The notes below the pieces were generated by a model. The model saw only the letters and a list, made by a program, of their open reading frames with translations, ran no database searches and was not told the origin of the DNA. A stretch of 64,000 nucleotides of DNA from Minutocellus sp. GHC0000111 (taxonomy: Eukaryota): positions 1,054,001 through 1,118,000 of the forward strand of contig OZ361258.1 of the NCBI GenBank assembly GCA_977018835.1, given 5' to 3'. How positions within the stretch are numbered: the stretch's first letter is position 1; every line of letters begins with the position of its first letter. Of this stretch, positions 4,731-52,332 are shown in pieces. The translations under genes and the position numbers were made by a program.

Positions 4731-5510
4731 ATGAGTTCCAAGGCGGCGGCACGTGGGGCGGCCACGAGGCTCGCAGCCGTATCCAAGCAAAGTAGCAAAA
4801 GATCTTCTGCCGCGGGTGGATCAACGACTACGAGTAGTAAGAAGCAAAAGACGACACCCGCCAAAGATGATTCCACTGCGCCTTGGTATCACTTTTTTAC
4901 CAAGGGCGACGAAGATTACGATCGGTACATGTCGACGGAATGGGGCTTTGAGAAACGAAGCGATCGGGACCTATTTGAGAAATTGAGTTTGGAGGGCGCC
5001 CAGGCCGGACTCAGCTGGAAGACGATCCTCACAAAACGCGAAGCATATCGCCAAACATTCCACAATTTTGACGTGGACAAGTGTGCCAAAATGAAGAATT
5101 CAGATGTTACCAAGATACTCGAAATTGAAGGGAGTGGCCCAGATGTCGTCGTGAGACACAAAGGAAAGATTGAAAGCGTGATAAACAATGCCCAAATGAT
5201 TCAAACGATGAGAAAGGGCGAGCTACAGAAATCTGGGCAAACTTTTGGAGAGTTTCTTTGGTCATTCGTTGATAACAAGCCAATTCTCAACAGCTGGAAA
5301 GCACTCTCGGATATGCCCAGCAAGACAGATGAAAGTGAGGCGATGAGTAAGGCTCTTCGGAAACGAGGGTTCCGGTTTGTAGGTCCGACCACATGTTACA
5401 GCATGATGCAAGCGTGTGGCCTTGTCATCGATCATCCCGTGGGCACCAAGGAATGGATCGAAGCCAAGAGAAGTCTAGAGAAGAGATCAGGAGGATACCA
5501 GTCGCGCTAG
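4731..5510 (+). CDS. tag: DNA-3-methyladenine glycosylase I (TAG family)
   Basis: EWG...LFEKLSLEGAQAGLSWKTILTKREAY and GFRFVGPTTCYSMMQACGLVIDH motifs; basic NLS-like N-terminus. Confidence 0.9.
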   Translation: MSSKAAARGAATRLAAVSKQSSKRSSAAGGSTTTSSKKQKTTPAKDDSTAPWYHFFTKGDEDYDRYMSTEWGFEKRSDRDLFEKLSLEGAQAGLSWKTILTKREAYRQTFHNFDVDKCAKMKNSDVTKILEIEGSGPDVVVRHKGKIESVINNAQMIQTMRKGELQKSGQTFGEFLWSFVDNKPILNSWKALSDMPSKTDESEAMSKALRKRGFRFVGPTTCYSMMQACGLVIDHPVGTKEWIEAKRSLEKRSGGYQSR

Positions 5511-7367: not shown

Positions 7368-9565
7368 ATAGCATTCGAATTTAAACCTCCATGCAGGAAA
7401 GCGATCTTTGGTTGCTGACAACTTCGGGCTTCTTCGCGCTCCTCGCTTCACAGCACCATCTGCCAGCCGGATGACTCGCATACTTTTGGTCGCACTTTCG
7501 GTGGCCGGCCGGCGCGCGAAGCAACCGACCGGCGCGCCCAACACGAGCCACCATGGCGGCAAATATTCAAGTTGCCGCCGCTACGTGCAGAACGAAGGCG
7601 ACATCTCGCGCTGGTGTGGGAGAATTACGGCACGAGACCAACCAGGTACTCCCGACATCCTGGTGACATTCCCGTTGGTCTCGATCCACAATTCTCCATG
7701 AGCAAAACAAACAACGGCCGCAATCCCGCGGTCAAAACCGCAGACAGAGTTGCGGTGTGCAGGACGCCTGACAGGCTGAACTACTCGTCCGTCTTCGCAG
7801 AAAGGAACTTCATTACTACAATTTCATCGGCAACAACAACGACTCCTTGATGAATGTGTTGGGATGCAGTCCCATCATGCACGGCGCCGTCATGCACACT
7901 GCGGGCACCTTGGGTTTGAAGAAGAAGAAACACGAAGACTGCGATGTGTTTTTTGTGAGGACAGACAACCAGAATGGATGGAATGAAATGGCATCAAGAC
8001 ACTGCCTTGCCGACGACGTTCAGCGAACCCCATGCAAAAAGAGCATGTTTGTTCGCCTCGGTTCCATCAATCCTCGTGCAGCCGACGCTCTCCATGATGA
8101 TGGATGGATGGATGGCTTTCGACATGGTCACGGTCGAGCAACAATTTCGCCTCGAAGTGCCGCCGCCGCGGCTCAATTTGACGAAGGCATGTAATGCATT
8201 CCTCAAGTCGGTCGCACCACACATGTCGGTGGGACATGCGGCGATGGACTACGAAATCAACAGGCAGATGTTGCTCGAGGCCCAGAAGTTCCCTGGTGGG
8301 CATGCAATGGCCAGGACGATGGGTGGGACAATGACGACGATGTTGGGACGGTGGGCACCCTGACCACGACGGAGGCCGGTGAGATCAGTGAGGACGATGA
8401 CGACGAAGACGAGGACTATGTGCGCCCTGTCATGAGGACGAAGCTGACATTGCAAGAGAGGACTCCACACATGAAGCATGCACATGCAGCAGCACTTTGA
8501 GAAGAGTCGTCAGAAGCACGGTGATGGCGAGCCAGAGATGGGAGCTGTCGATGATGCCGAGGATGACGATGCCCCTCACTTCCATTTCCTGAAAAAGGCC
8601 GGCATTGAGGCGGCCGACTCAGGTAAAATAAGGGCAGTGCTGGCAGAGTGCTGGAGAGCTTTTTATCTATTAACATTTCTGATGGCAACAACAAGAAGAA
8701 ACCAAGGACAATGGAGTTCATCCACCATAACACCTCCACCAAAGGAACTCTCCTAGAGCACAATCGCGAGGAAGATGGCATGACGGATGACGACACATCA
8801 AAGAGCTCTGCAAAGCTTGCTCTAATTTGCTCCACACTCTTGACGCAACATGTTCCAGGTTTCTGAAATGGCACATGAAATGGGGGATGATGAGGCAAAG
8901 AAGGCTGTGAGAGAGCTTGAAGCATTGATTGCAAGTGCCCTCAAGCAAGCACGGGCAATCGGCATTAGCACAACGCCCAAGTGGCACTTACTCGAAGATC
9001 ACATCTTGGACCAACAACACATTTGGCTAGTGAAGAATGGATGGGGCGGCATCTGTTGGCTCGACGAATCGTTTGTAGAGCGAGCCCACCAAGAGGGCGT
9101 TAAGGAAGATCGTCGGACTCAGGGCGTCAAGGGACATGAGGCCCAACAGACGGCGCAGTTCAAGGCTGAGGAGAGGGCATCCAATCCAAAGGTCGAGGAG
9201 AGGCGGGAGCGAAACTCTCGGGTGTGGCAAGAACAAGGAAAAGGACAAGGACCGAAGCTGTTAAAGCAGAAACTGATGACAAGCGCCAACAAATGATCAT
9301 GATGGCCACCGATGGAGATGAGGATGTAGAGATGGGAGCAGGGCATGTATAAAATTAGAAAATGAAATTACACTGCTACTACACAACAGCAAATGAATCA
9401 TTGCATGATCAATCCAACTTTTACAAACAGTGTCGCGATTGAGCAAAAAAGTAAATAGCACACCCAAACAAACACATCACGTCCTTCTTAACTCACCCAT
9501 TTATCTCCCAGACCAAAAAGTCCCTTTGTCGGGTTGATTGTTGCATAAACTTATCCCAATGCTAT
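7368..9565 (+). mobile_element. Decayed DNA transposon (Chapaev/Transib-like DDE transposase remnant); boundaries approximate
   Basis: Fragmented same-strand ORFs 7698-9296. The C-terminal motif TPKWHLLEDH...GGICWLDESFVERAHQ matches the K-x-H-x-L-x-x-H...E-x-x-E-R-x-H pattern. Possible imperfect TIR ATAGCATT at 7368-7375 and 9558-9565. Base composition is strongly TpA-depleted. Confidence 0.65.
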
Positions 9566-10157
9566 CTGTCTCTCCTCGGGCGCAAAATTGTTGTCGGAAT
9601 TCCGGGGGGGGGGAGGTCGAGTGGGGATACGATCGGTCGGGATCAGCGAGAGTCGGTCATACGGGGGGTGCGGCGCAATCCCGGCAGTTTATCATCAACA
9701 ACAACGTGGGAAAGTACCAGAGGGTCTGGGGCATCACAACGGGAGCACGACGAGCACAAAGACGGAGCAATGGTGCCACCCCAGAGAAACGAACGGCCGA
9801 CAGATGGAGGAAAAAGTAGGCCGATGGTTCGTGGCGTTGATACGCAGCGGAGGCCAATCTGAGGATACAGTAAGCTTCAACTATATCCAAACATGATAAT
9901 GAATGCGTATTTGGTACGAAAATGTAGTTATACGCCGGCGCAACGCCGACGGACCACCATGGTGTTGGACGGTCAAAGAATGGGTGACGAACGAGATTAA
10001 GTTTTGGTGGGTTTCTTCGTGACGTGTTCGTCTTCTGCCGAAAAACGCTTCATCCGACCGGCGAAACAAGACGAGATGGGGCTGTGGCTTGTTGCTTCTG
10101 TCATTTATGATCGAACCCAACCCAAGCAAAGCAAACCTGCATCTCTCTCCCTCCACC

Positions 10158-10559
10158 ATGAAGCAATTTATTATTCTCATCCTCGCATTCGTTTTCTCCG
10201 TCAAGACCGCTCTCGCGAGTCGCCAGTCAACTCTGGTGGGCGCGCTCAATCGACAGGCCCACACGGCGTTCATAAGACCGGATCAAGATGTCATCCATTT
10301 CGCAGACGGCGATGAAGAGAGCACAGCGTTTGTTCGTCAGTGCGTCAACAAGGATTCCAACAAGCAAAAGCAGGGGCGATTTACGCGCAAGCATCAGCAG
10401 CAGCCCAAGCACGGCGAGGCGAACAATGGCACTCCTATCGCCTTCGCCGGCAAGAGAAAAGTGAAAGTAACGTCAGCAGCTTTTACCCCTGACACCAGGA
10501 GGGCAAAGAACCCCATTGTTCAGTATGGAGAGTACATGCCTCTCTACACTGGCTACTAA
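10158..10559 (+). CDS. Small secreted or plastid-targeted hypothetical protein
   Basis: CACC-ATG context; signal peptide MKQFIILILAFVFSVKTALA. Confidence 0.55.
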   Translation: MKQFIILILAFVFSVKTALASRQSTLVGALNRQAHTAFIRPDQDVIHFADGDEESTAFVRQCVNKDSNKQKQGRFTRKHQQQPKHGEANNGTPIAFAGKRKVKVTSAAFTPDTRRAKNPIVQYGEYMPLYTGY

Positions 10560-10744
10560 GTCGGCGCTGTCTTGGTAAACAGGCATTCGACATTTGCTTT
10601 GTACACTACGCATAAGTATTATTTTGCTTCATATCGATTACATACTCGACCAGTAACATTATAATAAGCAAGATTCTTGGTTCGCATAGGGACTAGCTAG
10701 ATACAGTGCATACATATAGCGTTAGAGCCACTGCTCTCTCTTAG

Positions 10745-11680
10745 CTATGATTCATAGTCCAGAATGTCCCGAAGCTCCTTAGCCCTGCCGTGAGCCATAT
10801 GTACACAAGCGGCGAGCTGCTCAGGAGCCATAATCGTCCGTCCTCTCTTGTCCATTGATACGATGCCCCCCGCCATATTGACAACCACCGTGAGTGTTCC
10901 ATCGAGTACTCCCTCCTCTTCATCGTCTGGATCGACCAACAACTTATCGTCAAACATGGCAACCGTCAGTGGTATTGGCATCTTGTCCATATTCAGCTTG
11001 AGCTTTGACCCACCAGAGTTGTCCTCATCCTCGCCGGCCACTACTTGGACCATGCCTCCATCTCCCGGACCGGCCTTGTCGTTTATTCTCGTACGTGGCA
11101 ACCTTGTATCGATCAAGGCCGATACACATCCCAAAAGTCCAGCATCGAACAGATTACCAGCATCGTTGAGCACAACGCAGCCAATCTTGAGTCTCCATGC
11201 TGCCTTACCCGTGATGATTCCCAGTGCTGAAAAGTCAATCATACCAGATGTGCGAATAATCCTTTGCAGATGAGATTCGATCGACGATGGATCGGCCTTG
11301 CTGACACTGCCGCCGTTGTCCGATGCTCCACCGACTCCGACTCCACCGCCGCCCTCTCCCTCGATAACACGCCCCGACAAATTGTAACCCCTCCCACAGA
11401 TGGGCGAGACGGTGAGCGACACCACACAGTCTCCATCGTTAGGAGTTGCTGGTCCTGGAACCCCCACCAACAGAGTGACCGCCGTCAATATTTGAGTATC
11501 TCCCAACCGAACGAGAGAGGACCCATAGGTGTTGCGAGGCACCACCGATGGGACGATGGTGGTTGCTCTCGCCGCCGCGTGCTGACGACCATTTGGCCGG
11601 GTATTCTTCGTGGTAAACGAGCGCAAGACCCCCCTTGGGTCGAGAGAGCGCAGGGTCTCAATAGAGGATTCAATTTCCAT
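10745..11680 (-). CDS. RRP43: Exosome complex RNase PH subunit, RRP43-like
   Basis: TRPNGR, YGSSLVRLGDTQI, GKAAWRLKIGCVVLNDAGNLFDA and LLVDPDDEEE motifs. Confidence 0.8.
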   Translation of the reverse strand: MEIESSIETLRSLDPRGVLRSFTTKNTRPNGRQHAAARATTIVPSVVPRNTYGSSLVRLGDTQILTAVTLLVGVPGPATPNDGDCVVSLTVSPICGRGYNLSGRVIEGEGGGGVGVGGASDNGGSVSKADPSSIESHLQRIIRTSGMIDFSALGIITGKAAWRLKIGCVVLNDAGNLFDAGLLGCVSALIDTRLPRTRINDKAGPGDGGMVQVVAGEDEDNSGGSKLKLNMDKMPIPLTVAMFDDKLLVDPDDEEEGVLDGTLTVVVNMAGGIVSMDKRGRTIMAPEQLAACVHMAHGRAKELRDILDYES

Positions 11681-34212: not shown

Positions 34213-35562
34213 TTAGAAGTACATGTAGAATGCCCAGGTCACGCCAAGCTCCTCAAGCTGTCGGTGGCGCAATTCATCTAGCTTTCCCTCCTTGAATTCC
34301 ATCCGCTGTCTGTTCAGCCAAGTGCCAAGATTGATTCCTTCCTCCACGTGGCGTTTCGGAACATCGCAATGACCTTCCCGCTCATGATACCGTACCAGCA
34401 AGTCAAAGTTTTGCTCCCACAGATTTGTGTACACATCCCAGACAACACCGACATCCTCGAGCCGCTGACGGCGCGATTCTTCTAGCTTTCCCTCCTTGAA
34501 CGCCGTCCGCTGATGGGTCAACCACCTGCTAAGATTGATTCCGTCCTCCGTAACGTGGCCCGTTGGAACATCACAATGCCCCTCTCGCTCATGATACCGT
34601 ACCAGCAAGTCAAAATGCTGATCCCACTTGTCTGCGAGCAAATCCCAGACCACATCGAGATCCTCGAGCCGCTGACGACGCGATTCGTCTAGCTTTCCCT
34701 TCTTGAACATCTTCCGCTGTCTTTGCAACCACTGGCCAAGATTGATTCCTTCCTCCTGGTGGGAGACAGGAATGTTGCAGTGACCTTCCCGCTCATGATA
34801 CCGTACCAGCGAGTCAAAATGCTGATCCCACTGACTCGAACTCTTCCGTCCGCCCCTCCACCCCAAATTCTTCCAGCTGCCCTCTATCCTCTCTAGCTTA
34901 GCCTCTCCTTCGGGATTGAGTTTGCCCTCCTTCTTCAACTTCTTGAGTCTTTTCACCTCGGCAGCCCTAGCCCTACCACCAAAAGTGCCCACAGCCCTGT
35001 GAAGAGTCAGAAGAGAAACCATCGACAGAGTCAAGTCATCGTCTTTGTCCATCTCTTCATCTCGAATTAGAATATTCTCGATTTCCACTCGAAATTTGGT
35101 CAAAGACAGTGTTCCAAGGAAAACAGGAAGCGATAGATTATCAAGACGAGCATTGTCACCGTATAGCTCCCGACACATGGTGATCTCAAGGTGCAAAGGA
35201 CGGTCCTTTCTGCCAGTGACGGAAACGAGCCCAGTCGCTGCATCATTAAGAAATTGCACACTATCATATCTACAGATCTTGTCTGGGGACCCTGCTAAGA
35301 AAGCACCGGTGAGCGTAATTTCAGCGCCACCTCCTTCTTTCACGTCACCAAATGGAATGGGGATAGCAATGCCATTGATCAACCGTCGGCTAGGAAAATA
35401 CCCGCTAGTCTCTGTGTAAGTAAGGGCGAACGAATGAAGCGACTTCTTGAGTCCTCCCTTGAGATGTTGCTCGAAGCGACCCTTTTCAACCTTGGGATTG
35501 TGAAAGACCTGCATGGCTGTGTAGCCGACGTAAATGAGTGCGACAGAGGGATTCGCAACCAT
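34213..35562 (-). CDS. Helicase-associated (HA) repeat protein inserted antisense inside IFT140
   Basis: Three repeats of WDQHFDLLVRYHEREGHCDVP...NLGxWLxxQR...GKLDESRRQRLEDLxVVW. N-terminal region unassigned. Confidence 0.85.
   Translation of the reverse strand: MVANPSVALIYVGYTAMQVFHNPKVEKGRFEQHLKGGLKKSLHSFALTYTETSGYFPSRRLINGIAIPIPFGDVKEGGGAEITLTGAFLAGSPDKICRYDSVQFLNDAATGLVSVTGRKDRPLHLEITMCRELYGDNARLDNLSLPVFLGTLSLTKFRVEIENILIRDEEMDKDDDLTLSMVSLLTLHRAVGTFGGRARAAEVKRLKKLKKEGKLNPEGEAKLERIEGSWKNLGWRGGRKSSSQWDQHFDSLVRYHEREGHCNIPVSHQEEGINLGQWLQRQRKMFKKGKLDESRRQRLEDLDVVWDLLADKWDQHFDLLVRYHEREGHCDVPTGHVTEDGINLSRWLTHQRTAFKEGKLEESRRQRLEDVGVVWDVYTNLWEQNFDLLVRYHEREGHCDVPKRHVEEGINLGTWLNRQRMEFKEGKLDELRHRQLEELGVTWAFYMYF
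34230..34835. repeat. Three near-identical tandem DNA repeats encoding HA domains (periods 207 and 204 bp)
   Basis: ctcatgataccgtaccagc recurs at 34381, 34588 and 34792. Confidence 0.9.
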
Positions 35563-36038
35563 GGGATCTACGCGTGTTTTGTCCGAGCCAAAAAGAATTT
35601 AAACCTCAGTACAGAGCCAATGGAATTGTTTTGTGCAGAGGCTGCCAGGGAGGATGAAATGAACAGTATAGTTCGAGTGGAGCATGGGATCAAAGCTCTT
35701 GTTCTACGATATGTCTCTCTGCATCGGTATCAAGACTCATACGACCTAATTCAAGCCATGGACTATCCCTCCCGATACATATCGAGAGACATCATGGAGC
35801 AGGTTTGGACTGCCTGTAACCAAGATCCCAGGGAAGTTGCAGAGATCATTGCTGACGATGAGAATCGTAACGATAACTCAATGTTATCTAGCCACGGCAA
35901 GCTGGACGATGGTCAAGATAGCATTACGGACGAGGAGAGAACAGTTTTGAGCGGCTTGGGACTGAACTTCTAACTAGAGCAGTGGTAGAGTTTTTAACAC
36001 GCATTATCTAATCTAATTCTTTCTAATACGTATTACTT

Positions 36039-51409: not shown

Positions 51410-52157
51410 AAGCGTTGACGGTTTTCCCCCATGCAATCCGATCAGCAACGACTCGCATGTCAGGGCAATCTTTGGCTATGTAAGTCGGCGACTTACCACC
51501 GAGCTCAAGGATGACCGGCGTTAGTGTCTGGGCCGCCTGGGCCGACACAATCTTTCCAACACGGGACGATCCCGTGAAGAAGACTATGCCCCACGGATGT
51601 CGTAGGAGCTCGGTCGTTTCGGGTATTCCGCCCTCAAATATCGCAAACACCGACGAGTCAAAGTACTGCGGAACAAGCTTTGCCAGCAGAGACGAAACAT
51701 TGGATGCCATCTCGCTCGGTTTGAGTACCACGGGATTTCCAGCTGCCAAACTACCCGCCACGGGGACCAGTGAGAGAATAATAGGATAATTGAACGGCGA
51801 AATTATCAAACACCCAGGCGAACGGAGCGGTTCGTATCGTATTTCCGAGAAGGCAGGCATGAGCAAGCCCGGTGAGGGTACCTGATGAGGCTCGGCATAG
51901 GCAGGGAGCTGTGCAAGGAGCTCATCAATCTCAATGAGTGTGGTGCCGACCTCACCGACCTCGGCCTCGATGGCATGCTTTCCCAGGTCCTGAAATATGG
52001 CGGAGAGGATGGCCTGCTTGTTCTCGACGATCATCCGTCGGAGGGCCTTTAACTGGGATCTTTTCCATTCGATTGACTTATTGGCCCCACCGCGGTGAAC
52101 AGCGGCCATGCCGCAACGGACCGACTCCAGCCGATCGGCAAAGGCGGTGTTCGTCAT
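51410..52157 (-). pseudogene. Aldehyde dehydrogenase (ALDH3-like), truncated just before the catalytic GQTC
   Basis: ISPFNYP, AAGNPVVLKPSE, FFTGSSRVG, LELGGKSP and IAWGKTVNA, after which homology stops abruptly. Confidence 0.85.
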
Positions 52158-52332
52158 GGTTTAGAGGTTGCAAAATGAAGAGGCTTTCCGGCCACGGAGA
52201 CTCGTCTCCGTGGCCGGAACAGCGGCCATGCCGCAACGGACCGACTCCAGCCGATCGGCAAAGGCGGTGTTCGTCATGGTTTAGAGGTTGCAAAATGAAG
52301 AGGCTTTCCGGCCACGGAGACTCGTCTCCGTG
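52097..52332. repeat. 116-bp exact tandem duplication (period 120) with a 16-bp-stem hairpin at the junction
   Basis: 52097-52212 is identical to 52217-52332. TTCCGGCCACGGAGAC-TC-GTCTCCGTGGCCGGAA at 52186-52219. Confidence 0.95.

Follow-up and report, generated by a model that had tools for sequence, protein, structure and literature searches.

Strand-symmetric A:T>G:C transitions concentrated at TpA in the copies of a high-copy diatom DNA transposon

Has a mutational process directed at repeated DNA erased the TA dinucleotides from a transposon of Minutocellus sp. GHC0000111? The question is raised by a broken transposase within the window, the whole 64,000-nucleotide stretch analysed here, in which an earlier note saw only 3 TA in 7861-8620, 17 in 7861-9300 and no RTAY (TA with a purine before and a pyrimidine after) in 7650-9345, and for which it proposed a repeat-targeted, context-specific A:T>G:C mutator, or 'reverse RIP'. 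These counts were reproduced, with 21 TA present in 7650-9345; the tag-gene region used as a control, credited with about 7 RTAY in 660 bp, contains 6. The RTAY-free gap, bounded by sites at 7646 and 9347, is 1.7 kb long, against 593 bp for the runner-up in the window. About 21-22 RTAY were expected in it (21.8 at the rate of the rest of the window), giving a probability of 3e-10 for none, or 3e-7 once 799 possible starts are allowed for, and a probability of 8e-5 that none of the remaining 21 TA lies in RTAY.

The products of TA>CA/TG are abundant, as the note had stated, with CATG, ACAT, CATC and AACA the most enriched 4-mers, and four of the five lowest-TpA 1-kb windows fall in this stretch, where CpA and TpG are raised. 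The ORF at 8844-9296 encodes no Tyr in 150 residues, in line with the reported lack of Tyr. Where His had been read as standing in for Tyr, HMQQHFEK and KGHEAQQ hold up (the outgroup has Tyr and the copies Tyr, His or Cys), whereas the His residues of PHFHFL do not lie at polymorphic columns. The surrounding DNA is not depleted: the two flanks hold 47 RTAY in 2,749 bp and 43 in 2,614 bp, no spread of TA erasure into the flanks of the element was seen, and 16 long host ORFs retain 7.9-21 RTAY/kb.

Several other features of the window were also noted. The second-longest RTAY gap (9930-10523) consists mostly of single-copy DNA and lies outside the signal. The ORF at 34213-35598 (- strand) encodes three HA (helicase-associated) domains and an uncharacterised N-terminal half; its 12 RTAY are indeed normal, but it makes a weak internal control because no result marks it as an insertion or repeat, and it was set aside as a repeat control. 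The tag gene (4732-5510, + strand) encodes a 3-methyladenine DNA glycosylase (Tag family, PF03352), an enzyme of adenine-lesion repair, 2 kb from the element, a proximity that is probably coincidental. An exact 116-bp direct duplication with 120-bp spacing, holding a near-palindrome, occupies 52097-52332.

The depleted stretch is part of a sharply bounded repeat (Table 1). Summed contig depth in X1 and X8 is about 1e5 within 7449-10086 and a few hundred outside, and contigs of other loci join at 7449 and at 10086-10089, marking the edges of the element. The 4-bp target site duplication (TSD) is read from this one insertion only, and at lengths of 2, 3 and 5-8 the flanks gave no match. The transposase reading frame was rebuilt by frameshift-aware alignment to in-frame copies, and alignment with the full-length copies P0004, P0029 and P0032 showed that about 575 central codons are deleted between 8755 and 8756; full-length transposases comprise 920-1,097 residues. 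Pfam returned nothing significant for the ORF fragments or P0032, and PDB sequence searches with the transposase returned nothing or coiled-coil noise only. A predicted model of a full-length copy (pLDDT 83) gave 46 Foldseek matches at E<=0.001, the best being RAG1 (E 1.2e-12, at about 10% sequence identity), and among the matches listed all were RAG1, RAGL or Transib, so that on its predicted fold the element belongs to the Transib superfamily, as a non-autonomous member.

Table 1 Features of the element in the window
Feature	Position	Strand	Evidence or remarks
Non-autonomous, internally deleted DNA transposon of predicted Transib/Chapaev type, young, high-copy, 2,638 bp	7449..10086	+	Depth, joins, TIR, TSD
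Left TSD, GCTT	7445..7448	+	Same 4-mer at 10087-10090
Right TSD, GCTT	10087..10090	+	Same 4-mer at 7445-7448
Left terminal inverted repeat (TIR), CAC start	7449..7461	+	12/13 bases match the reverse complement of the right end
Right TIR	10074..10086	-	13 bp, pairs with left TIR
Left subterminal arm	7462..7649	.	3 RTAY; one (7563) is a transversion private to this copy
Right subterminal arm	9601..10086	.	High-copy, relatively spared; 9 RTAY in 486 bp
Broken transposase ORF, ~540 codons of a ~1,100-aa protein	7698..9350	+	Frameshifts by small insertions
RTAY-free core	7650..9346	.	0/19 reconstructed RTAY kept (13 CA, 6 TG); at 3 of the 19 the silent T is read from the polymorphism itself
Eleven 2-4-bp insertions in the window copy	7755..9223	+	No true deletion in ~1.64 kb

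The element resembles the Transib superfamily (Transib, TransibSU, Chapaev, Chapaev3 and RAG1), as described in the parts of two reports drawn on here, in predicted fold, CAC termini and a short TIR and TSD, and differs in its 4-bp TSD from TransibSU (5 bp) and Chapaev3 (3 bp) (PMC4411706, PMC3014272). It also differs in lacking a Pfam match, in a long coiled-coil insert and in its low identity to RAG1. Used as a query, P0032, itself without a Pfam match and with a predicted RAG1/Transib fold, recovered a 623-protein family (E<=0.001) whose named members come from diatoms; its coiled-coil insert spans about 120 residues. A TSD of 4 bp fits Chapaev proper, which on that length is the likely clade. 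Named homologues of the transposase come from Thalassiosira exigua and T. oceanica, and diatoms likewise head the named relatives found for a housekeeping gene of the window.

At the right edge (10062-10181), the contig across the junction is about half as deep as the two-allele contigs (X1 and X8) and the second flank allele differs at many positions, suggesting that the insertion is probably present on one homologue only. At 70 bp from the right end lies a small gene present in single copy (10158-10559, + strand), whose start resembles a signal peptide and for which Pfam gave no match. Its alleles are about 4% divergent, and the other allele skips 159 bp (10568-10728). The summed depth of RNA library X3 peaks on the right arm (9657-9900), and at 9611 and 9900 contigs of X10 continue into other sequence, a hint that the right end may yield shorter derivatives or transcripts.

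To read the mutational process, copies of the transposase were compared. Protein searches returned clusters with some 200 members that are near-identical and lie almost all on large ENA contigs; of these, 84 protein-encoding copies, possibly from one or few assemblies, were analysed together with 9 outgroup sequences. Copy residues were mapped onto the codons of the window copy, giving 23,924 aligned cells; as the copies are predicted proteins, silent sites are invisible and frameshifted copies under-sampled. Left out of the count were row P0001, which is the window copy, rows P0026 and P0062, which are unrelated fragments, any column represented by fewer than 15 copies, cells in or next to a frameshifted segment, and the four sites at which the 5' T was deduced from the change (60/204 cells). 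JGI metagenome contigs were also scanned, with 155 hits to the pattern but no relative confirmed among them. The recurrently variable columns were Tyr/His/Cys, Ile/Thr/Met, Ile/Val and Asn/Asp, and Tyr content was 1.2-4.3% in distant homologues versus 0-2% in most copies.

Substitutions among the 84 copies are almost all TA>CA/TG. Counting either strand, A>G after T was found in 854 of 3096 cells (27.6%), at 51 of 59 sites, compared with 53/5700 after A (0.9%), 17/6638 after C (0.26%) and 6/9408 after G (0.06%); it accounts for 854 of the 981 classified transition cells, the four sites of inferred context left out. Transitions leave 65 cells unexplained, and at TA-bearing codons at most 9 cells (about 1% or fewer) are non-transitions. 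The two strands were hit alike (367 CA versus 331 TG). The expectation that sites would be polymorphic among copies and the spectrum enriched for a strand-symmetric TA>CA/TG change was thus borne out. The earlier claim that CpG is retained needs a slight adjustment, as CpG is mostly retained in the ORF (rho 0.82) but C>T is slightly raised there, at 28/4393 (0.64%) in CpG versus 23/17037 (0.14%) elsewhere.

Within TA, the rate per strand was 43% in RTAY (573/1343), 27% in YTAY (172/627), 15% in RTAR (107/715) and 0.5% in YTAR (2/411). RTAY is therefore the top context, as proposed, but not an exclusive one: the preference is graded, RTAY > YTAY/RTAR >> YTAR, with A[A]T (39/1567) and A[A]C (13/1057) as weak additional targets. 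T[A]C (39%) equals T[A]T (37%), and T[A]G was least hit (23/407). The gap is about 300-fold between RTAY and other transitions and 30-fold between TA and AA, and outside WA contexts there is no excess of A:T>G:C. The window copy follows the same order, its core having kept 14/21 YTAY/RTAR and 7/7 YTAR sites, and is the saturated end of the copy series. Decay of 6mA in ApT would hit an A that precedes T whatever lies 5' of it; this candidate was rejected, as G[A]T (2/2385) and C[A]T (3/1904) are untouched and T[A]C is hit as often as T[A]T.

The direction of change is fixed by the states found side by side. At the 14 Tyr sites TA, CA and TG occur in one column, while Arg (CG) appears once in about 630 cells, which makes TA the hub and excludes CpG decay and RIP as the source. 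In the outgroup (64-71% identical; mostly one sequence for the N-terminal half), 18 of the 24 sites with data carry the TA-state residue and the other 6 an unrelated residue, and at no site is a derived state the majority. The earlier conclusion that 5mC deamination is not responsible is upheld by the same two observations. CpG decay would also make CA and TG, and repeats are polished less well in assemblies, so that a reversed arrow or an artefact (CpG deamination, RIP-like CA>TA, inherited TA-poor composition or assembly error) deserves mention; RIP, however, is unable to make both CA and TG at one site, distant homologues are richer in Tyr, and the same variants recur across three studies and two library types, leaving these explanations barely credible.

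The changes keep to the repeat. Of the differences listed from the reads (40 of 71 and 40 of 68), those of the TA/CA/TG type made up 33 of 47 in the element and 1 of 27 in the single-copy flank, which has 50 TA sites (P=7e-9). TA/CA/TG variants recur in the 2024 runs and in the Illumina RNA libraries X3 and X10 of two other studies, and this recurrence across studies and library types excludes assembly error; X17, with 5 contigs over 9330-11100, was left out as evidence. Mutated copies are present in the RNA libraries, where DNA carry-over is possible, and silencing of the element may be incomplete. Spectrum, symmetry, direction and confinement to the repeat all support the proposed repeat-targeted A:T>G:C context mutator, and we consider it very probable that a transposon-directed mutator of this kind has acted here.

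The hits accumulated one by one. All four gametes were found in 692 of 745 character pairs and mean r2 was 0.035, against 0.028 expected under independence; states so nearly unlinked arose repeatedly or were shuffled by conversion, as conversion or recombination between copies also yields four-gamete patterns. Neighbouring hits fell on the same strand in 299 of 601 cases (null 304), and all 77 copies with at least four hits carry both CA and TG kinds, showing that the hits are distributive, one site at a time. The load is overdispersed among copies (variance 2.24 versus 1.0, with 0 of 2000 shuffles as high), and the three full-length copies are all within the eight lowest loads of 75. No significant correlation was found between TA load and other divergence (rho 0.17, P=0.16, n=70), so a steady clock is not supported.

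Within the element the clues to homology-dependent targeting diverge. Full-length copies have 3-4 Tyr in the 330 residues shared with the abundant derivative versus 14-16 in the 574 central residues, a centre that is also hit. The shared part has lost more Tyr, but the arms, whose copy number is just as high, are spared, and the catalytic core may be under selection, which confounds the comparison. In the right arm (9601-10086) no excess of RCAY or RTGY was found, and in other copies arm sites 9774 and 9817 are mutated and 9884 and 9924 barely so. The outgroup family offers 15 polymorphic columns with few TA-type pairs (1/15 Tyr columns, two Ile/Thr), too few to judge.

These patterns bear on an explanation without any dedicated system, in which ordinary replication errors made at flexible TpA steps go uncorrected by mismatch repair in heterochromatin and are then spread by GC-biased conversion. 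Free reassortment among copies is what conversion would produce, and the Tyr-poverty of the part shared with the derivative fits as well. Conversion would nevertheless favour any G/C allele whatever its context, whereas the copies show the steep RTAY gap, spared YTAR and no A:T>G:C excess outside WA; the same spectrum also arises de novo in a single-copy region of Bigelowiella natans, according to the portions of a preprint used here (bioRxiv 10.64898/2026.01.13.699255). We regard this explanation as quite improbable.

The window copy also carries the short insertions of Table 1, at about 7755, 7769, 8099, 8301, 8423, 8479, 8661, 8795, 8884, 9012 and 9222, mostly tandem duplications (7769 is complex). 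Reads of other copies have matching gaps at 8099, 8301, 8422, 8481, 8793, 8882, 9012 and 9222 among the indels listed (12 of 61), and the protein copies contain 51 in-frame insertions versus 12 deletions, one extra Lys of the reference set aside. An origin of the duplications at TA found no support either for distinct positions (8/36 versus 6.9 expected, P=0.37) or for the window copy (3/9 versus 1.7 expected, P=0.22); with recurrent events counted the result was weakly positive (15/47 versus 9.0, P=0.027). The insertions may reflect a background insertion bias of the diatom in unselected DNA. CTAG sites lie in the region of 8753-8756 and 9027-9030 (copy columns 436-437); the one at codon 437 shows no point mutation (0/56), yet it is where insertions are densest, with an extra codon in five copies.

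Polymerase eta has a WA hotspot; its errors include many transversions and differ little between TA and AA. Error-prone repair synthesis by a polymerase of this type in methylated transposon chromatin could yield both A:T>G:C changes and short duplications, and the WA-like secondary targets A[A]T and A[A]C and the surplus of insertions over deletions are consistent with it. So is the mild hypermutability of CpG, expected of DNMT5-methylated transposable elements in the sections of the source consulted (PMC9998398). The near-absence of non-transitions at TA codons, the wide TA/AA gap and the lack of the same-strand runs expected of repair patches count against repair synthesis, which we consider rather improbable.

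That the changes are nearly pure transitions speaks for a damaged or altered base and against a sloppy polymerase, and the substitutions would fit equally well a lesion of A or one of T on the other strand. One form of the latter would be a repeat-targeted, TET/JBP-type 5-hydroxymethyluracil (5hmU), oxidised at R-T-A to 5-formyluracil, which pairs with G and so gives T>C, with pure transitions on both strands, as observed. In dinoflagellates, according to the parts of two papers drawn on here, 5hmU is made enzymatically and enriched on repeats, with older work reporting a preference for TA and TC (PMC11572971), and 5-formyluracil gives T-to-C changes in chemical mapping (PMC11071213). The same portions report no sequence preference of 5hmU in Breviolum (PMC11071213) and make no mention of diatoms (PMC11572971, PMC11071213), and TC is spared here, as seen from the complementary G[A]. 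A thymine lesion is an unlikely source, if one with some claim to attention.

Adenine deamination in DNA is the chemistry that we favour, at somewhat better than even chances. RNA editing with subsequent reverse transcription is excluded, since the hits are strand-symmetric and unclustered and the element is a DNA transposon, and ADAR-type RNA hyper-editing (one strand, clustered, UAG) was rejected on the same grounds and on TAG being least hit. The preferred T-A-Y is nearer to the motif of ADAT2/TadA than to the UAG of ADAR, which favours a host DNA adenine deaminase. Under this reading, the element multiplies by cut-and-paste, as its TIR, TSD and copy number show and its predicted fold suggests, and after insertion its copies would be marked as foreign, probably by silent chromatin or small RNA from the coding part, given the partly spared ends. 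A host enzyme, most likely of the TadA/ADAT type, would then turn the adenine of T-A into inosine in the silenced transposon DNA, site by site and on either strand, best with a purine before and a pyrimidine after. Replication across inosine fixes G. The resulting changes of Tyr to His or Cys and of Ile to Thr, Met or Val would erode the transposase until RTAY is exhausted, an erosion seen in the window copy that probably serves host defence. This reading leaves the tandem duplications unaccounted for. Its fullest form, a dedicated diatom A:T>G:C defence mutator with a natural R-T-A-Y DNA adenine deaminase, of common descent with that of Bigelowiella across SAR, aimed by chromatin or small RNA at the coding body and not by repeat pairing, and perhaps coupled by repair to the 2-4-bp duplications, is put forward tentatively, as possible but short of an even chance.

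How the process compares with known systems bears on its significance. Mutation is usually AT-biased, and the known DNA-mutating defences (RIP, AID/APOBEC) act on cytosine. RIP in ascomycetes depends on RID and DIM-2, homology pairing and a premeiotic sexual stage; like the process seen here, it wrecks repeated mobile DNA through transitions that are specific to a dinucleotide and fall on both strands, but it runs in the opposite direction (C:G>T:A, CpA>TpA), whereas the outgroup and the sites with three states give A:T>G:C, and it leaves same-strand runs, which are absent here, although many rounds could blur them. The mutation process of the element is not RIP. 'Reverse RIP' describes only the outcome, TA>CA/TG being the opposite of CpA>TpA; the hypermutable NCLDV region of B. 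natans is single-copy.

Counting against a TadA-type enzyme, the -1 base order found here (T >> A > C > G) differs from that of engineered TadA editors, in which T is followed by C. A-to-I deaminases (ADAT2/TadA and ADAR) change A to G with a strong preference for T or U 5' of the edited A, with the motifs 5'ACG for ADAT2/TadA and 5'UAG for ADAR; as far as the consulted parts of the source go, their natural substrates are RNA, while the substrate here is genomic DNA, hit on both strands in a transposon that moves without reverse transcription, and the best ADAR motif is the worst context here (PMC10661471). With TAC and TAT favoured and TAG disfavoured, the fingerprint is closer to ADAT2/TadA than to ADAR, and it is what a candidate enzyme must reproduce in vitro.

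Direct support for a natural A>G mutator of DNA has so far come from one preprint on one alga, and hypermutation of this TpA kind has thus already been described. In the portions of that 2026 preprint used here, Mettrop et al. report 230 de novo A>G/T>C mutations at TpA in two integrated viral regions of B. natans, at a rate about 1000-fold above background, find TpA-poor coding sequences enriched for DDE and reverse transcriptase domains and propose an ADAT2 candidate; flanking-context hierarchy and diatoms go unmentioned in its main text (bioRxiv 10.64898/2026.01.13.699255). No diatom report of TA hypermutation was found in the literature searched, which lay mostly outside subscription journals. 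New here are a second supergroup, a DNA transposon as target, the context hierarchy, distributive hits, relatively spared ends and the duplication load. Its scar in a diatom extends the process to a second major lineage with knockout tools (CRISPR mutants of Phaeodactylum tricornutum), opening a genetic hunt for the enzyme, and a natural DNA adenine deaminase, if real, would interest developers of base editors. In these genomes TA erasure moreover distorts GC content, the dating of transposons and the annotation of repeats.

The two systems differ in host and target, a rhizarian with integrated viral regions (the NCLDV one single-copy) as against a stramenopile with a high-copy DNA transposon, and in the data, de novo mutations there and changes inferred from copies here. 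They share the same transitions at TpA, on both strands and in foreign DNA only, at a rate far above background (bioRxiv 10.64898/2026.01.13.699255), which is expressed here in relative terms only, as 43% per strand in RTAY versus 0.14% for non-CpG C>T. The overdispersed load is compatible with non-constitutive activity between lines of the B. natans type, and in every feature compared here the process in this diatom works like that of B. natans.
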